Position numbers and translations under genes: made by a program. A stretch of DNA of 64,000 bases, filler included, from Stramenopiles sp. TOSAG23-3 (Eukaryota), in assembly GCA_900128585.1 (NCBI GenBank). It is 9 parts of 9 records of this genome, joined end to end, with 100 filler letters (N's around TTAATTAATTAA, not from the genome) between each part and the next. Parts side by side here need not be neighbours in the genome. Positions count along the whole stretch, not along the records: positions 7,246 to 14,388 come from LT643199.1; 8 more parts are not named here. The stretch is one strand, 5' to 3'. The notes under the pieces are model-generated. The model was given only the letters and a program-made list of their open reading frames with translations. It was not told where the DNA came from and did no database searches. Positions 7,282 to 50,475 of this stretch are shown in pieces (positions within the stretch are counted from its first letter, which is position 1; every line of letters starts with the position of its first letter).

Positions 7282-7481
7282 GACTTGTTGCTTTTTTTAA
7301 TTTTTTTTATTCGTACCTCAACAGTTCCTACAATATACAAAAAAATCTGTATTTTCTTTAAAAGAATTTAAACATAGCGTTAAATGGATCAACTGCTCAT
7401 GCTCATACAGCATTGCCAAAAAGGCATTTCAATATCTGTATACATACGTCCTAAAGTGTTGTACAAAACGTTTTGTACAAA

Positions 7482-10400
7482 ATGTCGGGGGCGCCGCGAA
7501 CGGCCGGCAGGGCTTCCTTGGGGCCTGGCGTCGTCCCGCCGGCCCCGTCGACGTCGAACAAATTGTTGTCCCGGGCCGAGTCGAACTGGGGAAAGGTTAG
7601 GGACGTCGCAAAGACGAACGTTAAGGATTCGGGAACGTCGGTGCGCGTGGTGTGCCGCGTCCGACCGATGAACAGGAAGGAGTTGGACATGAAGACCACC
7701 CCGTGCGTGGTTGCCAAGGGCGGCACGAGCGTGGTGGTGAGCGAGGGGGACGCCAACTTTTCGGATAAGCGGCGGTTCAATTTTGACAAGGTGTACGGTT
7801 CTGAGAGCAAGCAGGGCGAAGTTTTTGATTTCTGCGGGAAACCGGTCGTCCTGGACGTTCTGAAGGGGTACAACGGGACCATTTTTGCATACGGACAGAC
7901 GGGCAGTGGGAAAACCTTCACCATGGAGGGCCCGGACGTGGAGAACCCGGAGACCCAAGGTATGATACCCCGCTGCATCGACACCATTTTTGAAGCCATC
8001 GAAGAGGCGGACCCGAGCTTGACGTTTACTATTTCAGTGTCCTACATTGAGATATACTTGGAAAAGATTCGAGACTTGCTGGACCCTCGAAAGGACAATT
8101 TGAAGATCAAAAAGAAGGATACTGTATATATCGACGGTGCGACGGAGACGTACATTTCGAGCGTGGACGAGATCATGGACGCGCTCCACTTGGGGGCCAC
8201 GAACCGGGCGACGTCCTCCACCCACATGAACGCGCAAAGCAGCCGGTCCCACAGCGTCTTTATCGTAACGATAACGCAGAAGAACGAAAAGAACGGCACG
8301 GTGATAAAGGGGAAGCTGTACCTCGTGGATTTGGCCGGCTCCGAGAAGATTCGAAAGACGGGGGCCAGCGGCACGCGCCTGGACGAGGCAAAGATGATCA
8401 ACACGTCGCTGTCCGCGCTGGGGCTCGTCATTAAGAAGCTGACGGAAGAGAAGTCTACCCACATCCCGTACCGGGACTCAAAGCTTACGCGCCTGCTGGA
8501 AGAGTCGCTCGGGGGGAACGCAAAGACGACGCTGGTCGTGTGCTGCAGCCCCAGCACGTTCAACCACGACGAGACGGTCTCCACGCTTCGGTTTGGGGAG
8601 CGTGCGAAGAAGGTGAAGAACAAGGCCAAGGTCAACCAAGAGCGCACGTCGGAGGAGCTGATGCGCCTGCTGCGCCAGGCCCAAAAAGCGATACTGCTCC
8701 TTGAAAAGCGGATTCACGTCCTGGAGAAAGAGTTAGAGACGTACAGGGATGGGCCCAAGCCGGCGCGCAAAAAGGGCGGTGACCGACGGCAGACCACGGG
8801 AAGCATTACCCCCCTGGGCACGATCGAGGACGTGGACGGCGGCACTTCCAGCGACGAGGAAAGCTCGTCGGAGGACGCGGGGGCGCCCGGGATCGCCGCT
8901 TCGCCTGAGGCGTTGGAGAAATTGGCAGCCGCAGAGGCCGCGTTGAGCGAGCTGAAGGACGAAGCCCTGGCCTTGAAGGAACAGCTGGAACACTACCAAC
9001 TAAAGACAAGCGAGCTGCAGCTACAGAACGCGAACATGGTGGGCGAGATTCAAGCGCTTCGCGAGAACGTAAAGGAGGGGGAGGAGAAAGTCATCATAGA
9101 AGCGGAAAAGAGCAGGGTTGCCATCAAACAGAGCGACGGGCTGAAGGCCCACGTTTCGGCGTTAGAGAGAGAAAAGAAAGAGCTGCAATCGCAATTCGAG
9201 AGTAATAGAAAGGGAAACCTGGCCATGCTGGAAGCAACCACGGAGCTGGAAGAGAAGCTGACGTCGGCGAAAGTAGAGCTGGAAGACCGGGAGGACCAAC
9301 TGAAAGAGTTGGAGTCGAAGCAGCGGGAAGGCCAGGTCAAGCGGGACGAGCTAGAGAAGCAAGTGCGGGAGGCGGAGAGTAAGATTGGGCACAACGAAAC
9401 CTTGATCACGAAGCTTCTGAACGAGGGACAAGAGCACGAAAACTCGAAGAGCGCGCTGGAGAATCGCCTGGAAGAAGCCTCGGTAGCAAAGCAGTCCCTG
9501 GAAAAGAACCAAGAATCCGAGCGCTTCAAGTACGTCGAGGAGTTGACAAAGCTGAAGTCGGAGCTGGAAGAAAAGCGGGAGAGGGAGAAAGAGCTGCGGG
9601 ACGAGGTCGAGCGCACCAAAAACTTCGAAGAAAAATGTAACGAGCTGGGGCGGAAGCTGGAGTTTGCAGAGAGGAAACACGAGTCTCGGCTGTCGACCAT
9701 GCAGTCAAAGCACACAAAATCGATCCAGGAGATTGCCCTTCGCGCGGCCCGCGCCGAGTCTTCCATCGCGCAGCTGGAGGAAAAGCTGAAAGGGGCAGAG
9801 TCAGACGCGACAAAAAAGGGAGAGGAAATTGCGTCCCTGAAACAGGCGGAGCGAGCGCTTCAGGAGGCCCACGAAGATGCGGTGAAGGAGATAAGCTCGA
9901 AAACCCTGCTCCAAAAGCAGAAATTCGAAGAGCTGCTTCAGACCGAGAAGGAAGAGCGGCGCAACGTGGCCAAGCAAGCGGAAGAGAAGGGCGCGGACCT
10001 GATGAAGCTGAAGAATGCAATGTCCGAAAGGGACAGTCGCATACAGGCCCTGAGCACTGAGCTGGAGCAAAGCAACCAAACGAAAGTGACCATGCAGGTC
10101 GAACATACCACCGAGAAGCTGCAGTTGACACAGGAAAAGGATGCGCTCTCGGAAACGGCAAAGGGCCTGGGACGTAAAATATCTGGTTTGGAGGAAAAGG
10201 TCAACGAAGGGGAAGTAGTGAAAGCGAAAGCAAAGGAGCTCGAGGAATCGCTGAACGCGCTGAAACAGACCCACAAGTCACAAATGGAGAAGCAAGACGC
10301 TGAGAGCAAGCAGTCCATAGCAGAGGTCGGGCAGAAGCTCGAAGTGTCAAAGGCAAACTACCTGCTTTTGCAAGAGCAGCTCAAACAAAAGACCGTCGAG

Positions 10401-13400
10401 GGCGACGAAACAGCGAAACAGTTGGCGGAACTGCGGTCGAGCAGCACGTCCAAGATGAACGAACACACGAAACGAATAGAGGGTTTAGAGAGGCACGTGT
10501 CCGCGGAGCAGGCAACAATAGAAGAACTAAAGCAGGAACTGAAGGGACAAATAGACGATGCTGCGGCAAAGCAGCAGGAGATTGACTCCAAACTACAGCT
10601 GAGCCTGGAGGAGGGCAGCAAACTAGCGAAGACCCACGAGGCCGCATCGGAGCAGGCGAAGAACGCGATTGCGAAACTGGAGCAGAAGTGCGAAGGGTAC
10701 GCTAAGAATATCAGCGACGTGGAGCAGAAGATGCACGAGCAAACCGTGAAACACAAAGAACGGTCGCTTAAAATGCAGGACGAGCACAAGACGGATCTGG
10801 AAACCATCAAGAAGTCCCATTCGCAGGAATTAAAAAGTAAGAACGATGAAATTAACGCACAATTCCGGTCTCAGAATGAACAGAACAGTGAACACGCGAA
10901 AGCGGTCGACGCGCTAAACTCCTCGCTCCGCACGGCGGAGGCCGAACTGGTACGATCGCAAGCGGCGGAGGAAAACCTACGAATTGCGATGTCTGAGCAG
11001 AAGGAAGCGGTGCAGACCGAACTGATGGGGCGTTTGGAAAATGCTCAGCGGGACGTTCAGCTTGCACAGGAAGAGTGCGGCACAGTGAAAGCACAGAGAG
11101 ACCGGGCCCAGGGCGATCTTGCAAAATCTCAGCACAGCCTTGCAGTACTGCAGGGCGCGCAGAAGGCCCTTGTGGAGCAGATGAAAGAACTTCAAGGGGT
11201 GAAGGAAGCGCTGCAAACGTCGAACGAAAAGGTCCAAGTGCTGGAGACCCGGCTGGAAGAAAAGGTAGGGGAAGCAAAGATGGAGAAAGACCGGGCCGTT
11301 CGGGCGGAGGAAATGCTGAAAACGGAAAAAAACGATTTTCAGATCCAGCTGCAGAGCCGCGCCGAGAGCGCGAAAGAAGAGCTGGACCTGGAGCGAAAGC
11401 AAGGAAAGGAGAACATTGCAAAGTTGGAGAACAAAATAGTCCAACTGAACACACAATTTGACAATGCGAAGGCGTTGCACGCGATCGACATCAAGGAGCT
11501 GAAGGAGTCGTTGGCGGCGAAAGGGAAGGAACACATCGACCTGGTGAAAACGAGCAAAAGCGATGCCGCTGCTCTCCAAGAGAAATTGGAGGCTGAGCGC
11601 GCAAGTGCAAACGAGCGCACGGACACACTCCGCGCGTCCGTCCAATCGTTGGAAACCAAAATCAGCGAACTTATCCTGAAGCACAGCGAAGACCGGAATT
11701 CCTGGGCCATGACGTCGAAGATTGAACAGTCCTACGCGATCGAGGAGGAGGAGAAGAAGCGATCGGAAGAGGTGCGGCGCTTGAAAGAAGAGCACGCGAC
11801 GAACCTCGCCACTGTTCGGGAAAAATTAAACGTGCAGAAGCAGGAGGCCCTGAACACCTGCATGCAAACGACGATGGGCGAAATGCAGAAAGCCCTGAAG
11901 GAAGCGTCGCAGGACAAAGAGGAGGCCGTCCTGAAAGTTCGCAACGAGTGGAAAGACAAGAACGCTGAGATTGTGCTGAAGCACTCCGAGGAGGTGCAGC
12001 AATTGAAGGGGGACTTTGCAGAAAAAGAAGCCGGACTGGAGAAAGAAATCTCGGTCCAAAAAGCTGAGCTGACCGCTTTTGGGCAGAAAGTACTGGAGCT
12101 GGAGACGAACGTGTCCAGCTCCCTCCGTGACCACGAGAAAGCCGCAGAGAATTTGGAAGCAAAGATGGCGTCCGAAAGAGAAGAATCAAGAAGGAAGCTG
12201 TCGTCCCTGGAAGAAAACCTGCAACAGGCCGAAATAAGGTACGGTGAGCAAGCGTCCAAGCATGCCGAGGAGCGGGAAAGGTGGTCCGCCCAGTCCGCGG
12301 CTGATCTGGAGAAGAGCGTTGAGGACGAGGCTGCGAAGAGGGAAAAGTGCATTTCCGACATGCGGGAAGAAAAGTCTCGGGCGCTCCTCGAACTGCGAGA
12401 GCAGCTGAGTGCGGAGAAGCAGCGCGCGATCAACACGTGCATGGAGACCACCATGGAGGAAATGCAGAAGGCCCTTCGGAAAGCGGCGGCGCAGAAAGAG
12501 GAGGCGCTGGAAAAGGTTCGCTTGGAGTGGCGAAGCAACTTGGCCGAACAGGCGAGGGTATCGAAGGCGGAGCTGGAACGAAGAATCGCACTATGCAGCG
12601 AAGAAACGGGGAAGGAGATAGCAAATGTTCGGGGAGAAGCTGCGGACGAGCTGAAGCGTCGGCTGGAACAACAGGGCGAAGAGCTGCGCCTGGAACGCGA
12701 ACGGGACGCGTTCGAGATCGAAGCCCGACACGAGGCCGAGATGGAAGTCCAAGAGCGGGAAATCCGAGAACAGCTCACGGACGAGTTCAAGCTCCAGCAG
12801 ACGTCCAGCTCGAACCAGACGAAACAGATGCTGTTCAAGCTCGGGCATGCAGACGCCAGCCGAAGGACCCAGGAGAGGGCGTCCGCGCAGAAGAAGAAGA
12901 AGAAGTTCTCTTGGCTGCCGTTCGGGCGCCAAAAGGAGAGCCTCGAGTCTTTGGATTCCCCTGGCTACCGCGCCCACGCCAGCTCCGTAAGTGGCGCAGT
13001 CAACGTCGTCATCGGGGGCGAATCGAACCCGTTTGCGGACCCCGACCTGCCAGATAAATACGCCGCGTCGTGCGAGACCGTGGCTGCGCTCATGGTGCAG
13101 GTCCAAGAGCACGCGGAGACGACAATGAAGAAGACGGAGGAGAACGAGAACTTGAAGGGCGAGGTCGACGCGCTTAGGAAGCAGGAGGCCCTGATGCAAA
13201 ACACGATCAACGCGTACAATGCCAAAATGAGCAAGCTGATCCTCGCGAACGACGACGACGAGACGGAGAGAATGAACAAGTTGACCAAATTGGAGAGCTC
13301 TTGCCAGGAGCTTCAATCGCTTGTTCGAACCGCAAACAAGGAAAACCAGCAACTGAAAATGGACTTGGAGCTGTTGGGCATCAAAGGCGCTCGAAAGGAC

Positions 13401-13772
13401 CAGCAAATATACGATCTGGAAGAAGCCTTGAAAGGCAAGTCCACCGAAAGCAGGCAACTTACCCGGGGCGACTCGAAGCAACGGCTGGTTCGACCCCTTC
13501 GGGGTGGTGGGGGGACATCGATCGACAATTCGTCCCCGAAAAGCCTTTCGGGCGGCGGCGGAAGGACCCGGCGGCGATCGTACAGTGGCCATGGGATGGC
13601 CGCGTCGCCGCTGGAGAGGACACGCAGCGACGGGGATGTCATCAGTGCCGGGGGGAGCTCCACCCCGTTTGCTTCGGAAATGATGTCACCCGCAGTCGAA
13701 ACGCCTAGCGCAACCCGCCTGTTCAATGAACAGCGCGGCGACGGCGACGACAACTACAGCCCGGGTATTTAG
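7482..13772 (+). CDS. Kinesin-1-like heavy chain with an extremely long coiled-coil stalk (~2096 aa)
   Basis: Motor motifs RVVCRVRP, GQTGSGKT, NAQSSRSH, DLAGSE and HIPYRDSKLTRLL; neck TLRFGERAKKVKNKAKVN; tail RLVRPLRGGGG resembles the kinesin-1 IAKPLRGG autoinhibitory motif. Confidence 0.93.
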   Translation: MSGAPRTAGRASLGPGVVPPAPSTSNKLLSRAESNWGKVRDVAKTNVKDSGTSVRVVCRVRPMNRKELDMKTTPCVVAKGGTSVVVSEGDANFSDKRRFNFDKVYGSESKQGEVFDFCGKPVVLDVLKGYNGTIFAYGQTGSGKTFTMEGPDVENPETQGMIPRCIDTIFEAIEEADPSLTFTISVSYIEIYLEKIRDLLDPRKDNLKIKKKDTVYIDGATETYISSVDEIMDALHLGATNRATSSTHMNAQSSRSHSVFIVTITQKNEKNGTVIKGKLYLVDLAGSEKIRKTGASGTRLDEAKMINTSLSALGLVIKKLTEEKSTHIPYRDSKLTRLLEESLGGNAKTTLVVCCSPSTFNHDETVSTLRFGERAKKVKNKAKVNQERTSEELMRLLRQAQKAILLLEKRIHVLEKELETYRDGPKPARKKGGDRRQTTGSITPLGTIEDVDGGTSSDEESSSEDAGAPGIAASPEALEKLAAAEAALSELKDEALALKEQLEHYQLKTSELQLQNANMVGEIQALRENVKEGEEKVIIEAEKSRVAIKQSDGLKAHVSALEREKKELQSQFESNRKGNLAMLEATTELEEKLTSAKVELEDREDQLKELESKQREGQVKRDELEKQVREAESKIGHNETLITKLLNEGQEHENSKSALENRLEEASVAKQSLEKNQESERFKYVEELTKLKSELEEKREREKELRDEVERTKNFEEKCNELGRKLEFAERKHESRLSTMQSKHTKSIQEIALRAARAESSIAQLEEKLKGAESDATKKGEEIASLKQAERALQEAHEDAVKEISSKTLLQKQKFEELLQTEKEERRNVAKQAEEKGADLMKLKNAMSERDSRIQALSTELEQSNQTKVTMQVEHTTEKLQLTQEKDALSETAKGLGRKISGLEEKVNEGEVVKAKAKELEESLNALKQTHKSQMEKQDAESKQSIAEVGQKLEVSKANYLLLQEQLKQKTVEGDETAKQLAELRSSSTSKMNEHTKRIEGLERHVSAEQATIEELKQELKGQIDDAAAKQQEIDSKLQLSLEEGSKLAKTHEAASEQAKNAIAKLEQKCEGYAKNISDVEQKMHEQTVKHKERSLKMQDEHKTDLETIKKSHSQELKSKNDEINAQFRSQNEQNSEHAKAVDALNSSLRTAEAELVRSQAAEENLRIAMSEQKEAVQTELMGRLENAQRDVQLAQEECGTVKAQRDRAQGDLAKSQHSLAVLQGAQKALVEQMKELQGVKEALQTSNEKVQVLETRLEEKVGEAKMEKDRAVRAEEMLKTEKNDFQIQLQSRAESAKEELDLERKQGKENIAKLENKIVQLNTQFDNAKALHAIDIKELKESLAAKGKEHIDLVKTSKSDAAALQEKLEAERASANERTDTLRASVQSLETKISELILKHSEDRNSWAMTSKIEQSYAIEEEEKKRSEEVRRLKEEHATNLATVREKLNVQKQEALNTCMQTTMGEMQKALKEASQDKEEAVLKVRNEWKDKNAEIVLKHSEEVQQLKGDFAEKEAGLEKEISVQKAELTAFGQKVLELETNVSSSLRDHEKAAENLEAKMASEREESRRKLSSLEENLQQAEIRYGEQASKHAEERERWSAQSAADLEKSVEDEAAKREKCISDMREEKSRALLELREQLSAEKQRAINTCMETTMEEMQKALRKAAAQKEEALEKVRLEWRSNLAEQARVSKAELERRIALCSEETGKEIANVRGEAADELKRRLEQQGEELRLERERDAFEIEARHEAEMEVQEREIREQLTDEFKLQQTSSSNQTKQMLFKLGHADASRRTQERASAQKKKKKFSWLPFGRQKESLESLDSPGYRAHASSVSGAVNVVIGGESNPFADPDLPDKYAASCETVAALMVQVQEHAETTMKKTEENENLKGEVDALRKQEALMQNTINAYNAKMSKLILANDDDETERMNKLTKLESSCQELQSLVRTANKENQQLKMDLELLGIKGARKDQQIYDLEEALKGKSTESRQLTRGDSKQRLVRPLRGGGGTSIDNSSPKSLSGGGGRTRRRSYSGHGMAASPLERTRSDGDVISAGGSSTPFASEMMSPAVETPSATRLFNEQRGDGDDNYSPGI

Positions 13773-13827
13773 AGAAGAGTTGGAATAGATGTCGATTGTA
13801 CAATATATAAAAAAAAAACTAAAAAAT

Positions 13828-14337
13828 GCGATAGTATGCACCTGTATTGTAAAGCGTTCAGTGTCCTTGGCGCGAAAAAAAATCCTACACGAATTTCAAA
13901 GTATGAAAGGGGATGGCCCTAAAACGACAAATGAAAGGAAGGAAGACGCCTAACTGCATAAGTTTAGACCAAGCCAGTCTTCCTTGCAGAATCCCCGGTC
14001 AATAACGAACGCTTATAAATTGTTTGCCTTCAATTGACTTGGAATTGTGGTTCCAAGGGACAATTTTTTGTGAAATGGACGATGTTACCTAAACGCCACC
14101 CAAACAATCACTTGTTGGTTTGTTAGCGTTGGTAAAATGAACCGCACGGGCATAATTTTGTACATCTCAAACTATTTCTCACCGTTTAATATTGTAAAAG
14201 TTATCTTTTGTTCACAAAGATCTCTTCGTTTGAAATAGTTAACACAAAGTCCTTTCCCAGTTTTCAATTCCGCGCCAAAGATAGTCGTCAATTGCAAATC
14301 GACGGTCTTTGTTTATACTAATGCTGTGTTTATATTG
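13828..14337 (+). repeat. Dispersed ~510-bp non-coding element, copy 1 (426-bp core 13860-14285 between imperfect inverted repeats)
   Basis: Colinear alignment to the reverse complement of 38882-39391; the core is gapless. Confidence 0.9.
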
Positions 14338-14388
14338 AAGTATAATACTATTAACATCTCAATAGCAGAGCAAAGTAGGCGATGATAA

Positions 14389-14972: not shown

Positions 14973-15641
14973 ATGGCGAACCGTAGGCCTCGCGCAAACG
15001 GCGCCATCACAGTGAGCATTGATTACTTGTCTGTCGTGCACGGGCAAAATTCAAATAAGAATCTCCGCGCACCACCATCGCCATCGTCTGCAGGCAATGT
15101 ACAGGTAGTAGGACGTCAGTTCGTTTCTATTGCGCCGCCCCATCAGTCGCGGCCCCATCAGCCGCCGCGCCATCAGTCGCCACGCCAGCCTGTTCTCCAA
15201 CGAAGAGCTGAGGCCGCCCCCTTCTCGATATACAACAATTTTGGAGCGTACCGGCCATACCAGGGCGCCGCACCGTACGGAATGATACAACAACAACAGA
15301 TCGGCAGGATACCAAACAATAGTAGGAACCCCGCAGCGATGTACGGCCCTAGACCAGGTACTGCACCTCCGTACCATTACGGTGGCGCAGGCTTCGCGCG
15401 CGTTCCCATTGGGCCTGGGGGCGTCCCCGTTGGGCCTGGGGGCGTCCCCATTGGGCCTGGGGGCGTCCCCATTGGGCCTGGGGGCGTCCCCGCGTCGAGG
15501 GACCCGCGCCTGCCTGCAGGCAACGAATTGCATCTTCCGCGGTACGGCAATTTTACGCACCAGAAAATTGATCCTCCCAAATCGTCAAAACGGCCCGAAC
15601 CTATTAGATTGGGGGAATCGGGCATGTCGAAGGAGCAGCAG

Positions 15642-15715
<74 letters not shown>

Positions 15716-18700
15716 CAAAAAACGAAAGAAGGAAATCGCTCAGAAATCACTGAACGACTCGCATCGCACACCAAGAAGAAATGTAGACGAAGACAAACCG
15801 GGGCGGGAGGTTGCAAACGAGGCACCCAAGGAATCCACTGTCACAATAATGGAATCTGTGACTGCGGACAGCGAGCCTGTTATGATCGAGTTTTCGACAG
15901 ACGCAGAGCTGGACCAGTACATCCCCCGCTCTTCGACACCAAAAGAAAATGGAGCGGGGGAGCAGGCGAGCGAGCCTGTTGCGAGGAGAACCAATGCTTC
16001 CAGCTCCTCGTCAACTTCTGGACGGACAGACTCTCCGAACTATCGCGGCCTAACGAAGGCGTCTGTTTTGAAGCGTCACCGGAACGTCAGTTGGCCCATA
16101 CATGTCATTCGGAAAATGATCAAGTTGCATGAGGCTGGCACATCCTTTGCTGCGATCGCTATTGCGCTGGACAAATCGGAAAAGTACGTTCGGTCCAAAT
16201 TCGATAGAATGCAACAAGAGTTGGGCGACTCTTTGGAAACGGGGGTGACAGACGAGGAGGAAGAGAGCGAGTCAGCCGAGTCCTCAAGCAGCGAAGAGTC
16301 AGAGAGCGAGGACGACGACGACGAGGAGGAGGAGGAGGAAGAGGAGGAGGTACCGAACAGGGCCAAAAAGAGACGGAGGTATGCGGACAGATATTCCCGG
16401 CGCGAAATTTATGAACTATTGAAGAAACGAGCTACATCCAGATTTACACTGCCGATTTTGTGGAAAATGTGCAGACAGAATTTGAATTATCCCCATGTAA
16501 AAGTGTTCTCCAATCTCGCAGCCTCGGTGGGAATACCAGCGGATGTTATGATGGGGAGATGGGATAGCCTACAAATCCAGCTCCCTCGCGCCTGTCGAGA
16601 ATTTCCCGGCACGGGCAGAAAGCTAGGGCAAAAATTTGAAGTGGAGGTGCTGCCCAGGGAGTCTAACCGAGTTTCGTCACGTGCGATTAGTCTGACACCA
16701 CTTGAAGCAAGTGCTGTGCAGAAGTATTTCAACAAAGACAAGTCATACGATTGGATAGCTCGCAAGCTGGGAAAGCCAGAGGCCTCGATACAGCACTTCA
16801 TCAAGGAGAAGATCTCCAAAGACTCCACTTTCTTAACAAACGACAAAGAAGAAAACTTGGAGATTGAAGAGGAACTTGTGCATTCTGATCTTCTGTATGG
16901 TGATGATCGTTATGCTGCGATGTGGGTGCCTACTGAGAAGTTTACGAGAAGCCACATTGAAACCCCAAGGTGGAATTGCGATCAACTCCGAGTGCTGTTA
17001 ACCCACACCAAAAATAATTCAACCGAAGCAGAGCTGTTACAGGCCTTGAGCAAAGTTGGGAAGCCGGTGTCGCTTGCGGGTGCGAAGCAGAAAGTTATGC
17101 GTATTGCAGAAAAGTTCCCCAAAATGTTTCGAGGACAGAACTTGGAGAGCCCGACTGCACCCCTAATACCAGAAGAAACCCATGAAACGTATAAAGTCCC
17201 CAAAGCTGTTTTCTTGGTACTGTCGAAGTATGTAAGCTCCAGGTGGAGCATTGGTGAGCTAAGCCAGGTTTTCAATTTGAGGAAAAGTGGCTATGACTAT
17301 GGCAACATTGCGGTAGAAATGGGCAGAACAGAGAGTGCATGCTTGTCGAAGTGGAGGCGGGTAGTTAAGGAAGAGCCAGATTTGATGGATGAAATCAGCC
17401 AGGCATTAGGCGAAGAGGGCAGCTTTCCTCCAGAAGTATTGCCGGAATCTTCTATCAGTATGACCAACGTCATTGTTGGGAAAAAACGAAATCGAAAACC
17501 AGCGAAGCCATTTGGTGCCCCTGGTATCACTTCAGGGTATGTTAAAAAAAGGGGCGACTCCAACCCGTTACCAGTGCAACCAAGAAATTCGCGTTCTGGG
17601 CCTTCGTCCTCGTCGTCCAAGGCAGAACCTGTAAAAGAGACAGCACCTGTTAAAACGGCAGAGCCTGTTAAAACGGCAGAGCCTGTTAAAAATGCAGAGC
17701 CTGTTAAAAATGCAGAGCCTGTTAAAAAGGCAGGACCTACAGCAGAAAGCAAAGAATTGGTAAAATACATTGGAATGTACGCCGAGTCTCCATTGGAAGT
17801 CGGCCAAATTATACACGCGCGTTTCCGTGGGTGCAAGTACCCAGCCTATCAGGAGCAGTATGAAGCAAAAATTTTGAAGGTTCGTGCCGACGGCAGTGTC
17901 AAGGTTGTTTTCACGGAAGGAAAATGGACTCAGTCGCAGGTGCGCCAGGGGGATATATTGGAGTGTTGTAGGAAAGTTCGTCTCCGTGACTTCAGGGACT
18001 TGGTGGGGGCCTACGTAAGTGTTCCGTACTTGGAAGACGGTTTAAGGACAACATCATTTTCTGGGCTTTATCCTGCCAAGGTTGTATCAGTCGACAGGCA
18101 CCGCAATATTATTAGCGCAGAAGTGGAGTATTACAATGATACTTCAGGTTTCCACCGGGAATTCATACCGCTGGGACAGGTCTATGCAGCAGACGTCGAC
18201 TTATCAAAGGAAAACCCAGTTTCGAACAATGAAAACGCATCCAGTTCAACAGGTTCACCAGAGAGCGAAAATTATGACGATGGAGCGGAAGGCCTACTCG
18301 GTCGGCTTACCCGAGGAATACACATTTGGAGCAAAAGTGATGTAGAAGATTCCGTGTCTCCCCAGTGGCCAGTGGAACTCCTTGTACGGCTTAGCGAATT
18401 ATTAGTAAGTGGAACGACGTATCCAAAATTGTCCAAGCTCCTTAAAAAGTCAAAGCAGGCAATAAATAATAAACTAGCGCGCCTCCGAGAAAAGAGGCCT
18501 CGTTTGTACAATGCGGCGAAAAGCACAGAGAAAAGCACAGAGAACGACGCAGTGAAGGATGCGGTGGACGCTGCAGTGGAGGATGCGGTGGACGCTGCTG
18601 CAGTGGAGGATGCGGTGGACGCTGCTGCAGTGGAGGATGCGGTGGACGCTGCTGCAGCGGAGGATGTGGCGGAAGATGCGGCGACGAAACGCGAGGACGG

Positions 18701-20159
18701 ACCTGAACCAGTTGAGCAGGAAGAAAGCGGATGGACCCGTGGGATAGCAGGGGTGCGAAAGTGGAACGCCGGCGAGTTGGGGCAGCATACATCCCAGCAG
18801 TGGTCTCGAGAGGCAATGCTGAAGCTGAACGAACTGATCCTGTCCGAATCTTCCATTGAAGCTGTGGCAACCCGGCTGAATAAGTCCCCTGCAGCGGTAG
18901 TGAATAAACTTGGTCGAATGAGACGGAAATCGGCCGGTTTATTCAAGCCTTTAGGGGAAGGAGCCGAGCCGGTTGGCTCAGAACAAGATCTCGAGTCCTT
19001 GTGGGATCGTGTAACTGAAGGCATCAGGGTGTGGACTGCTGATGAACTTGAAGTTGTCGAATCACGGAAGTGGCCTACCCGGCATGTCATTGCTATTTCA
19101 CGCGCGGTGGTGCTGCAGCAGCTCACTCTACCACAAATCGCCAAAAAGCTTGGGAGAACACCAGGTGCTATTAAAAGCAAACTAGCACGCATGCGGGAAA
19201 AACAGCCGTCATTGTTCACTGCGCACGGTAGAAAGAAAACCGGCGACATGCAATCTAGGGAGCTTGGAGACAATGTCGAACCCGAGAAACAGCTAGTTTC
19301 AGAGAACCAGCGCCTGCAATGGCTGACTCTGACGGATGGAATGATCCGCTGGACTGGCAAATCTCTGGACAATTTTATTTCTACTGCTTGGCAAAAAGAC
19401 ACGCTTCTTACATTGAACAGGCTGACGTTGCGGAAGAAACCGTTCGAAACGGTAATCAAGGCTGTGAACAAAAGCACTCGTGCGACGTTGAAAAAACTTT
19501 CGCGTATGCAAGAGTCTGTGCTACGGAACGAATTCTTTTCGGGAAAGAAGACCGGGACTTCTAAGAGAGAGCCGGAAGATAAGGTCGAAAAACTTGTCGA
19601 CAGGGGATGGACGCCCCATCAGTTGCACTTGTTGGTGTTGCATTACAAAAACGAAAATGCAGGAAGCCTTCAAAATCTTGCCAAGATCGTGGGAAGGAGC
19701 GCGACTGCATGCATACGTAAGCACAGCCGTTTAGGCGAACTGGAGAAGAAACGGTTGTTAAAGGAAGCGCAACGTGCTGGGGTAACTTTGCCAGGGCAAA
19801 GTAATCCCAAGAAGCGCAAGGCAGAATCCAAGCCTGCTGATGCTTCAGGCTCTGCAGATGAGCCATCCGAGAATGTAGTGTATATTCCAAGAAGGTACAA
19901 AGTAAGAAAAGCAGAGCAGAAACAGCTGGCACCATGCACGGGAAGGACATGGCCCCCGAATTCTGTCTATGTGTTAATCGAGATGTACCGCACGGGTTAC
20001 CCTTACAAATTTATTGCAAAGTCCTTTATGTTGTCAGTATCGGCCGTCGAGGTCAAATTGAGAAGAATTTTTGATATTGTCCCCGGATTTCGATTGGACA
20101 GGACTGAACGGCAGAAGAGATTCATTTCGCTACAACCGCCATCATATCTAAAAAGTTAA
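14973..20159 (+). CDS. Large nuclear protein: Pro/Gln-rich N-terminus, about 11 Myb/SANT-like HTH repeats and a tandem Tudor/Agenet-like pair (1728 aa)
   Basis: Repeated pattern W-x(15-20)-IAxxLG[KR][ST]xxAxxxK (e.g. WSIGELSQVFNLRKSGYDYGNIAVEMGRTESACLSKW). Tudor-like LEVGQIIHARF...YEAKILKV...VKVVF and VGAYVSV...LYPAKVVSV...VEYY. Also a polyQ tract, an acidic tract and basic NLS-like motifs. Confidence 0.75.
15634..15713 (+). repeat. CAG/CAA polyglutamine tract (coding)
   Basis: Visible trinucleotide run. The same CDS has coding minisatellites at ~15409-15490 (21 bp, PIGPGGV), ~17625-17730 (18 bp, AEPVKx) and ~18555-18680 (27 bp, EDAVDAAAV). Confidence 0.9.
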
Positions 20160-27162: not shown

Positions 27163-27205
27163 NNNNNNNNNNNNNNNNNNNNNNNNNNNNNNNNNNNNNN
27201 NNNNN
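27163..27205. other. Internal scaffold gap (43 N, no linker)
   Basis: N run following a TTC microsatellite. Confidence 0.9.
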
Positions 27206-36942: not shown

Positions 36943-38691
36943 ATGCTGCGCACCCACTCACAGGGGCATAACGCTGAGGACGGTCCTGGGCTTGTTGTTC
37001 GAACTATATGCAATGGGTCAGAATTTCTGATACGGGTTGGGGATGGAAGCCAAAGCACTCGCTGGCTTGCGGTAGTCCTTTCGCATCGCGTGAAAAACGA
37101 TAAAGAAACGCATGGGCGCCTGCAACAGCGACAGCGAATGTGCACGAACGATGGCAGAAAATGTTGCCTCCCGATTCCATTGGCCGTAACTTTCGGGGAA
37201 AACAGAGAGTTTTGTGATCCCCAAATGAAGATCAAGGATTTGCTGACCAAGTATGGACACGATTTGGAGTTCCAGGTTCAGATGGGATTCGACATAAAGC
37301 CTGAGGAGGATGGAGGGGTTTTGCTCAGGCAAGACTTTGTGGAAAAGCCCAAGGGTCTGAAACAGTTCAGGATCGACAATGTTTTTGTCTGTGGTGACAG
37401 GGTATCGTCCACTGCATCGAAAGGGAATGGCAATTCCATTTACGTGGCAAAGAAGAACAAGCTGCTGGCAAAAGCATACCCCTCGGATGACCTCGACAAT
37501 TGGATGGAAATGCCCAGCGGGCCGTCTTGGGCAGACCTTGCATTTAATAGAGAGGGAAGGAAACGTTACGACAAGTACATTGCTGCCGAGAGAAAGATCC
37601 GGAAGCTGAACGAGATAGAACGGAAGAAGCTCAAACCTTCAGAAGGGGGAGAGGACAGTGCACAGGTTTCTGAATTCGGCCAGATCATGGCAGGCATTAA
37701 CTTGACAGACCTGCTGCCGCTAGAGGCTGGGGACCAGATTACCTGCAGAACAAAGCTGGAAGCGCTTCTGCGAGTAAATTATGGCATGTTGTCGAAAATC
37801 TTCGAGCATTTCACATTCAAGGAGCTTGTCTCCGAACTTCCGGACGCAGGACAACTGTATTTGGTGGACCTTTTGCACTTTTGCCTTCAGAGCAAGATAT
37901 ATGGGCCCGCAGACGAAGGATCGGAGCGCCTGGAGGAGATCCTGAAGACCATTGGAAACGAAGAGCGGGAAAAGTGCATAAAAAAGAAACAGGGACAGGC
38001 CGAACAGAAAAAGGCCGAGAAGACAGAGGATGCCCCTGGCAGACTTAAATACCTCGACGATGGCCTGCCGAAAGCAAAGTTTATCGAATCCCTTATTCGA
38101 ATTTCTTGTGCGGGGTACAGAAAGAAGAACAACCTTAAACCAAGCAACAGGATGACAACGCAGCAAATAGTATCCGAGATGCGCCAGTTGTTGTCGAACG
38201 TTATTCCGTTGTTTGAACGCAGAAACAACATAAAGACGAGGAGGCTGGTGAATACAGAAGAGATAAGGTCCATTATTTTCGAAAACTACGAAGCGCTGCA
38301 GCAAGTCTTCAACTTGTACGGGTCTGCCGATGCGAACAAGGACGAATCATTACACACAAGCAAACATTCGTTGAATTTTCGAGAGTTTATGCTGCTAACC
38401 ACGGACTCGCTACTGCTTGGTGAATGTCCTGGAGATACCAACGAGGATACACAGAAAGCGAGCGATGCAGCGTTCATTGGTGGCCAAGCTCGCGACGAGG
38501 CCCATGCTGTCAACGCGGCCAACCTGTCGGAAGCACAGCGGATGGTGGATGGGTTCATGCCGGAGATAGTCTTTTCAGAATTTATAGAGGCAGTGGTACG
38601 GGTTGCGTTAAAGAAGTGGGATGATCCAGGTATCTCGAACAGCGACAAAATTCAACTTGCTCTAGAAGCCATTGCGGTGCTCAGTCAGTGA
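36943..38691 (+). CDS. Protein with a Par3/HAL-N-like ubiquitin-fold domain and degenerate EF-hand-like helical repeats (582 aa)
   Basis: IRVGDGSQSTRWLAVVLSHR...PQMKIKDLL at the N-terminus; two units ending KFIESLIRIS and EFIEAVVRVA. Confidence 0.7.
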   Translation: MLRTHSQGHNAEDGPGLVVRTICNGSEFLIRVGDGSQSTRWLAVVLSHRVKNDKETHGRLQQRQRMCTNDGRKCCLPIPLAVTFGENREFCDPQMKIKDLLTKYGHDLEFQVQMGFDIKPEEDGGVLLRQDFVEKPKGLKQFRIDNVFVCGDRVSSTASKGNGNSIYVAKKNKLLAKAYPSDDLDNWMEMPSGPSWADLAFNREGRKRYDKYIAAERKIRKLNEIERKKLKPSEGGEDSAQVSEFGQIMAGINLTDLLPLEAGDQITCRTKLEALLRVNYGMLSKIFEHFTFKELVSELPDAGQLYLVDLLHFCLQSKIYGPADEGSERLEEILKTIGNEEREKCIKKKQGQAEQKKAEKTEDAPGRLKYLDDGLPKAKFIESLIRISCAGYRKKNNLKPSNRMTTQQIVSEMRQLLSNVIPLFERRNNIKTRRLVNTEEIRSIIFENYEALQQVFNLYGSADANKDESLHTSKHSLNFREFMLLTTDSLLLGECPGDTNEDTQKASDAAFIGGQARDEAHAVNAANLSEAQRMVDGFMPEIVFSEFIEAVVRVALKKWDDPGISNSDKIQLALEAIAVLSQ

Positions 38692-38881
38692 ATGCCTGGG
38701 AACCGGTGCTTGTGGGCACGCCCAACACGTTTCTAGATAATTAGCGCGATAGTCTAGCTAATCGTCTATTTCATCATGCCGCCTGTATTTTTATTTTTAT
38801 TCTTACGACGAAGCAACTCATCATCATTATTTTCTTTAATCGTTGATGACGCTGTGTTAGTGTATAATTTTTTGTTTACAT

Positions 38882-39391
38882 TAATATATACACAGCATTA
38901 ATTTAAAACAGAGCGTCGCGCCCTTCGGAAAATAGTATCTGTGGCGCGGAATTGAAAAATGGCAAAGGACTTTGTGTTAACTATTTGAAACGAAGAGATC
39001 ATTGTAAAAAAACAATAGTTTTTAAAAATTTAAAACGTCAAACATAGTTTGAGATACATAAAATTGTGCCTGTACGATTTATCTTTCTAATACACTCAAA
39101 GGAATACGCGTTTGTTCGGGTAGCGTTTGGTCCAATTCGTCCATTTCACAAAAAATTGTCCCTTGGAACCGCAATTCCAAGTCAATGGAGGGCGAACAAT
39201 TTACAAGCGTTCGTTGGGGGCCGGGCATCGCGGCCGGAACAGTCATCTGATCTAAACTTATGACTTTAGGCGTTTTCCGTTCTTTCTTTTATTTTTTTCT
39301 TGCCAAATTCTTTCATACTTTGAAATTCGAGTCGGATTTTTTTTCGCGCCAAGGACACTGAACACTTGAAAGTACAGCTGTCTATCATCGC
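38882..39391 (-). repeat. Dispersed ~510-bp non-coding element, copy 2 (core 38934-39359)
   Basis: Reverse-complement match to 13828-14337; the core is gapless. Confidence 0.9.
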
Positions 39392-39512
39392 CTTTTACTT
39401 CAAGAAAAACAACGACGGTCGTCTTTTTATTTATTTTATTTAACGGAACAAATTACATAGGGATAGCACGTAAATAATTTTTAATGATAAAAGATATATG
39501 GCCTCCAGTCGT

Positions 39513-42500
39513 CTATTTTTTCTTTCCAAACATGCCGGCAAATCCTCCTGCGCCTTTCTTCTTCCCACCACCGAACATTGAAGATAGTACATTGGACTGC
39601 GTCTTCTTGGCATCTTCAAACAGCAACGCGAGAAGACCTTCAAGCTTTTCTGCGATAGAGTCTCCTGAAACTCGAGGGTGGATCCATGCAATGCGACACA
39701 ATGCCTCGAGAAATTCTACCAACGTCATGGTTTCGTGAGAATCTCTTCGTTTGTCCTTCGTGTCCCTTTTCTGCTCGTCAAGTGTCATCATTTGACTCTG
39801 CGCAAAAGCATGTATTGCTTTGACAGGTTTAAAGTCTTTCTTGCTGATTATCTTGACTTTCCTTAGGATACCCATGAACTCCTTCAAAGACATCAACTCT
39901 ACGTAGTCCTCCTTCGGTCCGTCGCTTGCCGCGGCCTCCTTGTACAGCTTCTTGATTGCAATAATTCTTTTGTAAAACACTTGGTGCACCGCTTCTGTGT
40001 ACAGGTGTTCTTCTCTGAACTTCTGAATTGCCCATAGAGGATCCACGCAAGCAATTATATGCTTCTCAATGAACGCCCTCAGCTTGTCTGGACCGGTGGA
40101 CAATGTGCGGTACCGCCGCTGAGACAATCGGACAACGGCTTCTATGAATTCGAATCTTGTCAACGCTTTCGAATGATTCTGGTCTACGCCCCTAGTTTGA
40201 GCGTTTACTTTCACAAACACTTGATCAATATCCCTGATGCGGCAGTTCCGCTTGTCAATTATGGATGCATCGGAGCACCATTTGGAAAATGAGTTCCACG
40301 AAATCATGAAATAGCCGTTCTGCTTTTCATCGCAGCAGTACTTGCGAAACGTTTCCGAAAGCGTCAGGTAGTTGTCCTGAAGGATAGATTGGCAGATTCC
40401 AAAGTCGTTTCTATCAAACAGACCTTTTATTCGATGGGCGTGTTTGATGTCCTCGAGCAGCGCCTTGCGCAGCATGTCTGGGGTCTCGTAGTAATCTTGT
40501 GAATCTGCTTCCATCTTTCTTTCCGCAAACACTGATGAGTCGAGCTGGAACGACTTGTCTTCCTCTTTTACACGCTCTCTTTTGAACTTTTTTCCGATTT
40601 CTGGTTTGCAACGAATCTCTCCTGTGTTTTCGTACACGTCAAAGTGTATCAGGGGGCGACGGTGATCCTCGTCCAGCATTTTTTGTATACGTTCAAACAT
40701 ATCAGCAAACTCTTCGTAGTCTATTTCACCGTCTCCCGACTCGTCCCATATGGTCAACATTTTTTGAAACTGTTCCTCCGACAACTCGATCCCAATGTCA
40801 TCAAACCCTTCTCTCAGTTCGTCGTGGTCAATCGTCCCCCCCCCGTCGTCGTCGAAATCTTCGAAAATCTGTACAATTGTTTTTCCGTCCTCCTCTTGCA
40901 GTCTCTTAAACCTCTGGGCTATTTGCACCTGAATTTTCACCTCTTCTTCCCGGCACAACCGCCTCAGCCATCTCCGGTTCGCGTCGACAGCCTTCTGTTC
41001 CTTCAACAACTGGGTCAACCCAGCGATCACATTTTTTGCCTTTTTGTTCTGAAACTGAACCCATATGTGGTCCCCGTCTTGGAGGATGTCTCGCACTTTC
41101 GTCCGTCCGTTCACCTTTGACATGAGGGGGTGCGGGGGCGCTCCCAACTTGTCCGTGCCTGGTGGCAGCTGAGTGAACATGTTGTACGGCGTCAGCGTTC
41201 CTTGCTGAACATGGTGCAGCCCACTCTCGCGCGAACGAACACGCCCTCGAGGCTTTAGAAATCGATCGTACCTTGCCGTGACGACATTCGCCAACCATTT
41301 GAAGTCGGGGTCGGTTGCGCATATCTTGAGCGGGAACGATTTGCTGGACCACTCGTCAACAGCATGGACCTGAAACATCAGGTCGTTTTCGCGCTCTTCC
41401 TCGTTCGCTTTCTCGACCGCAATTCTTTCGTCCTCTTTCGCGATCAGTGCTTTGGGGACTAACAGGGTACCTGTCAGACGAACTTCCCCGGACATGTCTT
41501 CCGGTTCAACCTCACCCTCCATGTCCTCGTGGTACTCCAGCTTGTACCAATCGTCAAATTCGAATCTATGAAAGCCCTCATTTTTGTAACCGTCGCCGTA
41601 CTCGTCCTCGTCGCCCTGAACAATTCTGGTGGTGACGTACACCGTGCCGGACACTCTCTCGAAGCGGTTCATATGCCCAGGGCGTTTTTCCAGAGGCCAG
41701 CGACGTCCGTACTCCATTGCAGACTTTTTGGTAATATCCTTCCGTGCGGCTTCGCCTAGACTAATGTACGCTTCGCCGAGAAAATCGTCGTCTCCCACGG
41801 CGTCGCAGTCCCAAATACTGACGCGCAGGTCTGGGGGATTTATATTTACACGCACGATCCCCTCAGGGTTCGGCTTCGTTAGGTTGGGTTCGATGAGCTC
41901 GTCGATCAACATTTCTATCTGTTTCGCGGGGTCCTTCAGTGTGCGGTACCGCAGTCCCGACAGGTACAGAAGGCACTCCATGAACTCCCCCCGCTCCAAC
42001 TGCGTGTCTCCCTGGGTACGAAACTGCCCGCCGTCGCCGTCGCCCCCGCCTGCCGGTTCCGTCTCCGTGTTTACCCGCCTGAATATCTCCTTCAAAGTCC
42101 TTCTTGATATCCCTAATTTCTTGTTTAATATTTTTGTATCGTCACAAAAAGCAATGAACTCCTTGAACGATATCGTCTCCGCTTCTTCGCCATCGTCCGT
42201 CTGAGCCCAGGAGGGCTTTGCGCAGCGTAACTGCGCGGCGTAGTCCTCGTCTAAATCTTCTGCCTCTAAATCAGCAAGCATACTGTACACCCGGAAGGCC
42301 TCGCAAAGCAATTCAAAGCTGTCGCTCATTATGACCTTCACCCTTCGCTCCGTCTTCCTTCCAGCCCTCAAAATGGCTGGCGTCATCTCCATCTCCCTCC
42401 AATCGGTCTCGAAAGACAGTCTCAAATCTTGCTCTTTGGGTATTGGAAACCAGTAGTCGGCCTCGTCAAATTCGGGGCACAGGGTCCTCTTGTGAACCTG

Positions 42501-43181
42501 GGTTGCACAGGACATTCCTGAAAACTCAAGCTTGGCATACGGGTCACTGAAGCCGTCTGCGTCTCCCGCTTGAATTCCCAAAGCCCTGTGCACTGTGACG
42601 CGCAAGTACTTCTGTTCAGGGTCTACTGGTTTCCTGTTCTTTACTAAATCCATGATGTTCCAGCTAAAGGTACCGATTGGGTCGTCCTCTGAAAGAAGGT
42701 CCTTGTCAAATACAGTCACCGTAAAGTCTACGTCCGTGATGGAAGTGTTCCAAAGAAGCTCTTGGCACGTGCACACAATTCGTTGGTCCCACTTTGGGTT
42801 CAGATTTTTTATTATATGCCTAGTTTGAACCGGTTCGCCATCACCGATCTGTATTTCTAATAGAGGATCACTGGCAGCGTACCCGTCCAACAAGTTTACA
42901 TCTGTCGCCACTAGGTCCCTCGCTTCTCGCGCCCATACCCGTGCATATATTTTGTCTGGATCTTTCCTCTCCTTCTTTTTTGCAGGGGCATGGGGGCGTA
43001 AGGCTAACTGGGATTGTTCACTAACCCTCCCCAGGGAGATTTTATCAATTTGCGTGGAAAAATAATCATGCGCAGTGTGTTTCTTCATTCTCTTTTTCAA
43101 TTCATGGTAGTACTTCCACGACGTCTGACGACTTTGCACCGCAACCCCATCGTCGTTGTCAGAGTCTTCACCAGAAGACAT
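39513..43181 (-). CDS. C2-domain + EF-hand calcium-binding protein (~1220 aa)
   Basis: C2 motifs ARDLVATD...SDP...KNLNPKW...VFDKDLLSEDDPIG and DADGFSDPY...WDCDAVGDDDFLG; canonical EF-hands DDDGGGTIDHDEL and DESGDGEIDYEEF; repeats ending EFMECLLYLS, EFIEAVVRLS and EFLEALCRIA. Confidence 0.85.
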   Translation of the reverse strand: MSSGEDSDNDDGVAVQSRQTSWKYYHELKKRMKKHTAHDYFSTQIDKISLGRVSEQSQLALRPHAPAKKKERKDPDKIYARVWAREARDLVATDVNLLDGYAASDPLLEIQIGDGEPVQTRHIIKNLNPKWDQRIVCTCQELLWNTSITDVDFTVTVFDKDLLSEDDPIGTFSWNIMDLVKNRKPVDPEQKYLRVTVHRALGIQAGDADGFSDPYAKLEFSGMSCATQVHKRTLCPEFDEADYWFPIPKEQDLRLSFETDWREMEMTPAILRAGRKTERRVKVIMSDSFELLCEAFRVYSMLADLEAEDLDEDYAAQLRCAKPSWAQTDDGEEAETISFKEFIAFCDDTKILNKKLGISRRTLKEIFRRVNTETEPAGGGDGDGGQFRTQGDTQLERGEFMECLLYLSGLRYRTLKDPAKQIEMLIDELIEPNLTKPNPEGIVRVNINPPDLRVSIWDCDAVGDDDFLGEAYISLGEAARKDITKKSAMEYGRRWPLEKRPGHMNRFERVSGTVYVTTRIVQGDEDEYGDGYKNEGFHRFEFDDWYKLEYHEDMEGEVEPEDMSGEVRLTGTLLVPKALIAKEDERIAVEKANEEERENDLMFQVHAVDEWSSKSFPLKICATDPDFKWLANVVTARYDRFLKPRGRVRSRESGLHHVQQGTLTPYNMFTQLPPGTDKLGAPPHPLMSKVNGRTKVRDILQDGDHIWVQFQNKKAKNVIAGLTQLLKEQKAVDANRRWLRRLCREEEVKIQVQIAQRFKRLQEEDGKTIVQIFEDFDDDGGGTIDHDELREGFDDIGIELSEEQFQKMLTIWDESGDGEIDYEEFADMFERIQKMLDEDHRRPLIHFDVYENTGEIRCKPEIGKKFKRERVKEEDKSFQLDSSVFAERKMEADSQDYYETPDMLRKALLEDIKHAHRIKGLFDRNDFGICQSILQDNYLTLSETFRKYCCDEKQNGYFMISWNSFSKWCSDASIIDKRNCRIRDIDQVFVKVNAQTRGVDQNHSKALTRFEFIEAVVRLSQRRYRTLSTGPDKLRAFIEKHIIACVDPLWAIQKFREEHLYTEAVHQVFYKRIIAIKKLYKEAAASDGPKEDYVELMSLKEFMGILRKVKIISKKDFKPVKAIHAFAQSQMMTLDEQKRDTKDKRRDSHETMTLVEFLEALCRIAWIHPRVSGDSIAEKLEGLLALLFEDAKKTQSNVLSSMFGGGKKKGAGGFAGMFGKKK

Positions 43182-43274
43182 TCTCACTCGGCCAGACCCG
43201 CACGAATTTGGGCTTAACTACTCACCCACGCACGCTGCAGTAAAACACTTTGATTTCCTTGCTTAAATGTCTTT

Positions 43275-50029: not shown

Positions 50030-50475
50030 CGCAAACCACTGTGTATGTATTATATGATGGCAAGTAAGTTCTCTTCCACAATCCCTTTGGCGCAAAGGCA
50101 TTTCAATACCAAAACTAAAAGAAAATATACCCAACACCGTACAATTACTACTCAATAGTTATATATAATATTATAGAAAACAAAACAATTATTCAAAAAA
50201 AATAATCTCCTCCTCTTTTTTTTTATAATAAATAATTTTATTATTATTATTTCATCTACCTTGGTACCGTACCGGTATTAATACTATTACTTGGTACGTA
50301 CCACTATAATATTAATAAATAATAAAAACAACAACTACACTACTACCGTACCGGTGTACCGGTACCAGGTATTGTACTTTGCACGATTAGTGCACAGGGG
50401 GGGGGGTACCTCTCGGCGTGCACACACCTTTTTTTCACATTTTTTACCAACTTGTTTAATGCTGTGTGTATATTC

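Follow-up and report, generated by a model that had tools for sequence, protein, structure and literature searches.

A family of intergenic non-coding units with a locked core length in Stramenopiles sp. TOSAG23-3

The window analyzed here is a stretch of 64,000 nucleotides that contains nine contigs of ~7.1 kb each with N spacers between them. Two copies of a non-coding element are found in the window, copy A on contig 2 and copy B on contig 6, and the question raised by this locus is what holds the length of such an element constant while its sequence diverges. The exact length is kept through ~22% divergence in every copy found, which is rare for a non-coding element, and therefore something measures the DNA or the RNA. 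The features of the two copies and of the frames beside them are listed below.

13823..14342: whole unit of copy A; the family HMM matches 14340-13823 on the minus strand, model positions 3-520 of ~555, E = 4e-159
13860..14285: length-locked core of copy A, 426 bp; 92/426 mismatches to copy B, gapless
13860..13877: left terminal-inverted-repeat arm of copy A, AGTGTCCTTGGCGCGAAA; the TTGGCGCG portion is invariant in the family
14268..14285: right terminal-inverted-repeat arm of copy A, TTCCGCGCCAAAGATAGT
14038..14057: central dyad of copy A, CTTGGAA-N6-TTCCAAG; lies within the longest invariant block, the source of the 22-24-mer scan words
14320..14333, minus strand: TATA-like motif of copy A, ATAAACACAGCATT; ends 41 nt before the core
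38879..39431: whole unit of copy B; the family HMM matches on the plus strand, model positions 3-555, E = 1e-171
38934..39359: length-locked core of copy B; gapless alignment to copy A
38886..38899, plus strand: TATA-like motif of copy B, ATATACACAGCATT; ends 41 nt before the core
39412..39423: outer dyad of copy B, GACGACCGTCGT; flanked by an A-run and a T-run, at the far end of the unit
39162..39181: central dyad of copy B
7473..13772, plus strand: intronless kinesin frame of 2099 aa; Kinesin motor E = 4e-113; ends 51 nt before copy A
39513..43187, minus strand: C2/EF-hand/p25-alpha frame of 1224 aa; ends ~80 nt before the dyad of copy B
36943..38691, plus strand: frame of 582 aa, convergent with the C2 gene

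The plus strand of 13860-14285 was aligned with the reverse complement of 38934-39359. The alignment contains 92 mismatches in 426 positions (78.4% identity) and no gaps, in agreement with the original prediction of a gapless core. The mismatches comprise 41 transitions and 51 transversions, and their spread over the three codon phases is even (32/29/31), as had also been proposed. The gapped BLASTN match between the two copies reaches 13823-14342 with E = 1e-113. Chance is excluded by this value together with the eight further full-length copies found elsewhere. The flanks had been described as colinear on both sides of the core. The left extension is indeed gapless, but the extension beyond 14285 requires 8 gap positions, so that "colinear" is only roughly true on the right. 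The identity profile of copy A against copy B in 20-nt windows reproduces the blocky conservation that had been noted. The central dyad was found at the predicted position (14038-14057), and the imperfect terminal inverted repeat of copy A was counted at the predicted 14/18. The element had been called non-coding, and no frame is open across all copies; the variability of the columns is without 3-base periodicity. A coding exon was considered separately and rejected, with stops in all six frames in several copies, a phase entropy of 70.3/62.5/67.8 and no local periodicity. No third copy or fragment was found in the 64-kb window using BLASTN and the family HMM.

Further copies were sought by an exact search of a metagenome collection of 241 million records with an invariant 24-mer. 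Nine loci (L001-L009) were obtained, seven of which carry one assembly prefix. L001 is the copy B locus in another strain, with 99.46% identity along 7 kb. The other eight loci, L002-L009, each carry a further copy, and the frames beside these copies are mutually unrelated; the expectation that more than two copies exist is thereby borne out. The number of distinct copies is 10 (two in the window and eight in metagenome loci, with the L001 ortholog not counted), and all 10 are intact. The pairwise identity of the nine full copies ranges from 74.7 to 84.9% with a mean of 77.9%; the relationship is star-like and without a close pair. The family HMM was run over the window and all loci (~141 kb) and gave 11 matches, each of which is complete except where a contig end truncates it, and no fragments or extra copies in these ~141 kb. 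None of the contigs of the window and loci carries a second copy. Three scans of viral contigs, each with a different conserved block, and one exact scan of a genome contig collection returned 0 matches.

One of the two window copies was re-found among the seven loci with the common assembly prefix, and a rough capture-recapture calculation would give a copy number of 11-14. The loci L006 and L008 suggest that the true number is maybe somewhat higher. The original prediction of a large genome-wide family thus stands as to the existence of the family, with its 10 distinct copies, but the evidence speaks against a large size. A small family is probable, probably with some tens of copies per genome, which would be of the order of the chromosome number of a picoeukaryote. 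The presence of two copies in one window cannot be used for an estimate of density, because their co-occurrence is the reason why the finding exists.

The cores of the nine full copies align without a gap in 423 columns, 201 of them invariant and 222 variable. On a star tree, at least 532 substitutions are required in these columns against 0 indels. For calibration, the non-coding DNA of the copy-B contig differs between two strains by 13 substitutions and 3 indels; one of the three indels falls within the unit, outside the core. The number of core indels expected from this ratio would be ~120, and even at 1 indel per 20 substitutions ~27 would be expected. The length is under strong selection, since no core indel is seen where tens would be expected if the sequence were neutral, and the earlier suggestion that the spacing is selected is strongly supported. 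Up to ~35 consecutive invariant columns adjoin columns that are near-random. These invariant blocks beside near-random columns, in combination with the lack of indels, are incompatible with neutral decay after insertion.

The two strains also provide a view of the core at a short time scale. Between the window and L001, 6 of the 426 bp of the copy B core are substituted, as compared with 6 in ~1100 bp of the remaining intergenic DNA and 16 in 5424 bp of coding sequence. Of the six core changes, two fall in columns where all other copies agree. The constraint is therefore not visible at this time scale, and within the species the core gives no sign of slow evolution; the numbers are small. In addition, one RNA-library contig that aligns on 13852-14083 has 66 letters between two conserved blocks where copy A has 127, and another contig on the same segment is without ~22 nt beside the central dyad. 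Relatives with other spacings exist somewhere, perhaps in other species. The strict length may hold within this genome only, because these metatranscriptome relatives differ in spacing.

The conserved region is larger than the core, and its order is best described on the strand opposite to the plus strand of copy A. The unit begins with the TATA-like motif, followed by a spacer, a body of 415 nt, a conserved tail, and an A-run/dyad/T-run. The motif, ATA(T/C/A)ACACAGCAT(T), is present in 9/10 copies. The spacer between motif and core is variable in sequence and has a length of 41 nt in six of nine copies and of 40, 38, and 30 nt in the other three. The body is bounded by TTGGCGCG...CGCGCCAA and is 415 nt long in 9/9 copies. 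These two boundary sequences are invariant in all copies, and the terminal inverted repeat to which they belong matches at 15/18 positions in the consensus. The seven pairs of the central dyad are invariant except for one G-U change in one copy. The outer dyad GACGACCGTCGT starts 57 nt past the body in four copies. It has at most one mismatch in five distinct copies, is degenerate in two and is absent in two (copy A and L002); copy A is without the far-left A-run/dyad/T-run that most copies carry. The length from dyad to motif is 538 bp in 5/5 copies in which both anchors are matched, copy B among them. In L006, a deficit of 11 nt in one arm is offset by an insertion of 10-13 nt in the other arm, so the distance between the outer motifs is kept within ~2 nt. 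The A+T content of the variable stretches is ~78% in the richest and 42-65% in the others. The ~538-bp unit with conserved arms and its promoter-like motif are points beyond the original prediction, as is the result, described below, that a position after the kinesin stop codon is no general rule.

The score for A/T dinucleotide periodicity at 10.25 bp was reached by 11/1000 column shuffles, and its mean is 1.56 for the element copies vs 0.57 for 27 control intergenic windows. The signal has p = 0.01 in the invariant columns, p = 0.58 in the highly variable columns and p = 0.19 when all periods are considered. The periodicity is real at the period chosen a priori and agrees with a cis-acting DNA platform, but it counts for little: helical phasing is a weak hint, since only invariant columns carry the signal and significance is lost when all periods are considered.

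The motif was also found standing alone, as ATA(T/C)ACACAGCAT(T/A), at 50458-50471 of the window, at ~5204 of L002, and at ~10455 of L005. In 3/3 cases an unrelated ORF follows on the same strand, with its first ATG 338-370 nt downstream of the motif, a nearly constant distance. Judged from these positions, ATA(T/C)ACACAGCAT(T/A) may be a general core-promoter motif of the organism.

The contigs of the window carry long intronless eukaryotic frames on both strands, with kinesin, C2/EF-hand/p25-alpha, SNF2, SET, ankyrin, and WD40 among the identified domains; the host genome is the compact, intron-poor genome of an uncultured marine eukaryote. For two of the encoded proteins, searches returned relatives from metagenomes only. 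The unit lies between convergent frames at copy B and its ortholog L001 and at L004, L005, and L007, and between divergent frames at L003 and L006. The unit of copy A follows the kinesin stop codon at a place where the contig ends, and most of the 821 bp that separate the stop codons of the 582-aa and C2 frames are taken up by copy B. No similarity among the flanking frames was found across the loci, the strain ortholog L001 excepted. The unit is thus free-standing and intergenic rather than part of a 3'UTR, because it is found between convergent or divergent frames.

These positions bear on the idea that the unit belongs to the 3'UTR of the gene before it and is a regulatory element there, comparable to the degenerate retroposons in the 3'UTRs of trypanosomatids. 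Both window copies start 51-80 nt past a stop codon in the same orientation as that gene (kinesin and C2), as such an element would. At L003 and L006, however, the unit is placed between the 5' ends of divergent frames, and convergent arrangements are uninformative on orientation. RNA-library contigs cover the 3' part of the kinesin frame and stop at 13779 (two runs) or 13815 (one run), before the unit is reached. None of the RNA-library contigs seen bridges kinesin into the unit, which is a weak hint, as these are assembled contigs without a DNA run for comparison. A 3'UTR element of this kind is regarded as very improbable. A 3'UTR retroposon of the SIDER type was rejected on the same divergent-gene sites in L003 and L006 and on the full length and freedom from indels of the copies. 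As a separate observation, the kinesin RNA contigs end 7-43 nt past the stop codon (13772-13815), beside an A-run preceded by TGTAC, which suggests very short 3'UTRs in this organism.

An intron was also considered, and splice-like motifs are visible by eye on the plus strand. No spliced joint is present in the RNA-library contigs, the units are intergenic, and the intron reading was rejected. Introner elements of marine algae are fixed-length transposons that generate introns, and the present units resemble them as fixed-length, non-coding, multi-copy families of compact marine protist genomes. They differ in that the units stand between genes and not within them, no spliced joint is seen in the RNA-library contigs and the copies are old and diverged.

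The inverted repeats that bound the core (14/18 in copy A, 15/18 in the consensus) raise the possibility of a non-autonomous DNA transposon, or MITE, with imperfect 18-bp terminal inverted repeats, each copy being either domesticated or derived from one of many diverged master lineages. The core size of 426 bp (~430 bp is MITE-like), the non-coding sequence, and the dispersed intergenic sites in both orientations are shared with MITEs. In L002, unrelated sequence replaces the left arm outside the repeat, and the border of the core is therefore sharp in this copy. Against this origin, there is no target-site duplication at the borders of the core or of the unit. In no copy do the two flanks at the core borders match; on the left the flank is itself conserved (..GTGTTC), and on the right it varies. 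The longest common strings at the unit borders are 4-5 nt and A/T-rich. Most copies are conserved for ~60-100 bp outside the inverted repeats, in which the family differs from MITEs. Young copies are absent, with no pair of copies closer than 85% (maximum 84.9%), and no fragments are present in ~141 kb. The blocks are invariant beside near-random columns, and there are no indels despite ~22% divergence. None of the loci holds a longer copy with a transposase-like frame, and the exact scan of the metagenome collection found few copies. The transposon named in the original prediction thus fails on target-site duplications, fragments, and close copies, and this explanation is considered unlikely.

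According to another explanation, the units are an unknown family of non-coding RNA genes of ~0.5 kb with RNA polymerase II as their polymerase. The TATA-like motif would act as the promoter and set a start site ~25 nt ahead of the core, and the RNA would lie on the minus strand of the window for copy A and on the plus strand for copy B. A panhandle of 14 bp would form between its 5' and 3' parts, leaving the conserved central hairpin exposed, and transcription would stop at the A-run/dyad/T-run. Several observations agree with this arrangement, which is possible but doubtful. The motif ends 41 nt before the core in 6/9 copies, the same motif is sense-oriented upstream of three ORFs at 338-370 nt from their starts, and the far end of the unit is terminator-like. 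The strand read from the motif folds better than its shuffles, with a mean z of ~-2.7 vs ~-0.9 for the other strand (10 sequences, 40 shuffles each). The 14-bp terminal stem and the central hairpin are predicted in all nine single-copy folds. For the RNA (minus strand of copy A), the predicted mean pair probability of the terminal stem is 0.5-1.0 in the nine copies. The G-U pairs of this stem would be A-C mismatches on the opposite strand, and the one-sided changes in predicted pairs on the motif-read strand are mostly G-C/G-U or A-U/G-U. Two of four RNA libraries contain contigs of other family members, at a depth like that of the kinesin mRNA contigs; such contigs show neither strand, ends, nor level. 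At ≥90% likeness, no contig from the four RNA libraries covers copy A (13816-14388), and missing cover proves nothing. One of the RNA-library contigs need not be a unit-length transcript, because it extends ~100 nt beyond the unit border.

Covariation does not support an RNA structure. At 0.099, the covariation score is no different from the mean of the shuffles, 275/500 of which reach it; changes on both sides occur in 3/70 predicted pairs, and the RNAalifold covariation terms are near zero on both strands (-0.32 and +1.88 kcal/mol). A search of all column pairs on both strands gave no helix with convincing compensatory changes. The structured RNA among the original candidates is thus without covariation support. 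The single-copy folds have only two helices in common; both are almost invariant, and for this reason they are untestable by covariation. The variable stretches are without consistent pairing. Rfam 15 gave 0 matches at the gathering score for the window and the nine loci, and only scattered, non-recurrent matches at E ≤ 10. The loops of RNA families normally accept indels, and none is seen in the core. Copies of a trans-acting gene are redundant, so that some decay would be expected, but 10/10 copies are intact. RNA polymerase III is excluded for the whole unit because T runs of 5-8 occur on both strands. No tRNA was found in the window, and a BLASTN search of the whole window with copy A as the query (word size 7), made to look for guide-like pairing, returned no more than short matches at the level of chance.

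Among the closest known counterparts are snRNA-type genes, which encode non-coding RNAs, are dispersed in multiple copies and have external promoters. Features in common with the unit are a TATA-like motif that stands upstream at a fixed distance, a conserved element downstream and, as predicted here, a terminal stem and a hairpin. The unit differs from them in its size of ~0.5 kb, in the absence of an Rfam match and of covariation, and in that the family is without variation of loop length and its copies are deeply diverged, not homogenized. If the units are RNA genes, they would constitute a new family of RNAs, ~0.5 kb in size and unusual in architecture.

The explanation tentatively preferred here is that the element is a cis-acting chromosomal DNA element, bound by proteins, with locked spacing; its probability is judged to fall somewhat short of even. 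The two TTGGCGCG/CGCGCCAA ends, the central TTGGAA-N6-TTCCAA dyad together with the sequence on either side of it, the outer TATA-like motif and the outer dyad are the invariant blocks to which sequence-specific proteins would bind. Between the blocks, spacers would be free in sequence and fixed in exact length, by which the bound proteins would keep their distance and rotational setting, and these proteins may form one higher-order complex on the unit. A function local to each chromosomal site would keep every copy intact. The chromosomal function may be centromere-like as a first guess, with a boundary or an origin as a second. A cis-acting DNA platform is simpler than an RNA because the blocks are invariant, the free spacers are of fixed length, covariation is absent, and all copies are intact. 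The cis-element or centromere-like reading fits best among the candidates originally offered. Against it, the unit looks like a gene, with the TATA-like motif in 9/10 copies at one end and the A-run/dyad/T-run at the other.

A specific form of the cis-acting element is that the units are point-like, sequence-defined centromeres of an uncultured marine picoeukaryote, with about one per chromosome and hypothetical binding of CENH3; a low probability is assigned to this form. The 538-bp unit would serve as a platform on which invariant blocks for kinetochore proteins are held at locked spacing, and the promoter-like motif would give centromeric transcription. The point centromeres of budding yeasts have a CDEI-CDEII-CDEIII layout in which CDEII is a very A+T-rich central spacer. 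The present units are like them in being short and intergenic, with conserved blocks that are putative protein-binding sites here and spacers that are free in sequence and constrained in length (201 invariant and 222 variable columns, no indel). Each copy, as in point centromeres, occupies a unique locus, is intact and is unrelated to the neighboring genes, and the family is small and star-like. The units differ in size, since ~538 bp is several times larger, and the organism is not a yeast. A very A+T-rich central spacer was not found, as the spacers are not extremely A+T-rich and the variable stretches contain ~42-78% A+T. For budding yeasts, one account reports centromeres of 17-200 bp with a defined motif, as well as centromeres built on inverted repeats (PMC12711049). 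For a picoeukaryotic green alga, another paper states the choice between point and short regional centromeres as open (PMC11092101).

No published description of such an element in marine picoeukaryotes was found in the full-text literature, which was searched by words. If the units are cis-acting, no large sequence-defined chromosomal element would have been described before them in a marine picoeukaryote, and they would be an obvious candidate on which to build stable episomes or artificial chromosomes for organisms of this kind. If the centromere reading is true, a centromere that is genetically defined would exist outside the budding yeasts. Under either the DNA or the RNA reading, the family HMM is a specific marker of this uncultured lineage in metagenomes. 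The public runs that contain at least half of the sampled words of 13300-14388 have a marine metagenome label or a coded organism name.

Four other observations were made in the window. A gap of 43 N at 27163-27205 is located in the fourth contig, lacks the linker that stands between contigs and is probably a scaffold gap. An FIE/EED-like WD40 protein and a SET-domain protein are encoded on the minus strand at 56254-57633 and 3-1451, respectively, and the organism may possess chromatin machinery of the Polycomb type. The Atlas neighbors of the FIE/EED-like WD40 protein are mostly plant or green-algal clusters, a weak lead on the lineage. The frame of 1728 aa at 14973-20159 on the plus strand matches the models for Sigma-70 region 4 (bacterial-type) and HTH_38, a combination that is unusual in a eukaryotic protein and may be transposase-derived.
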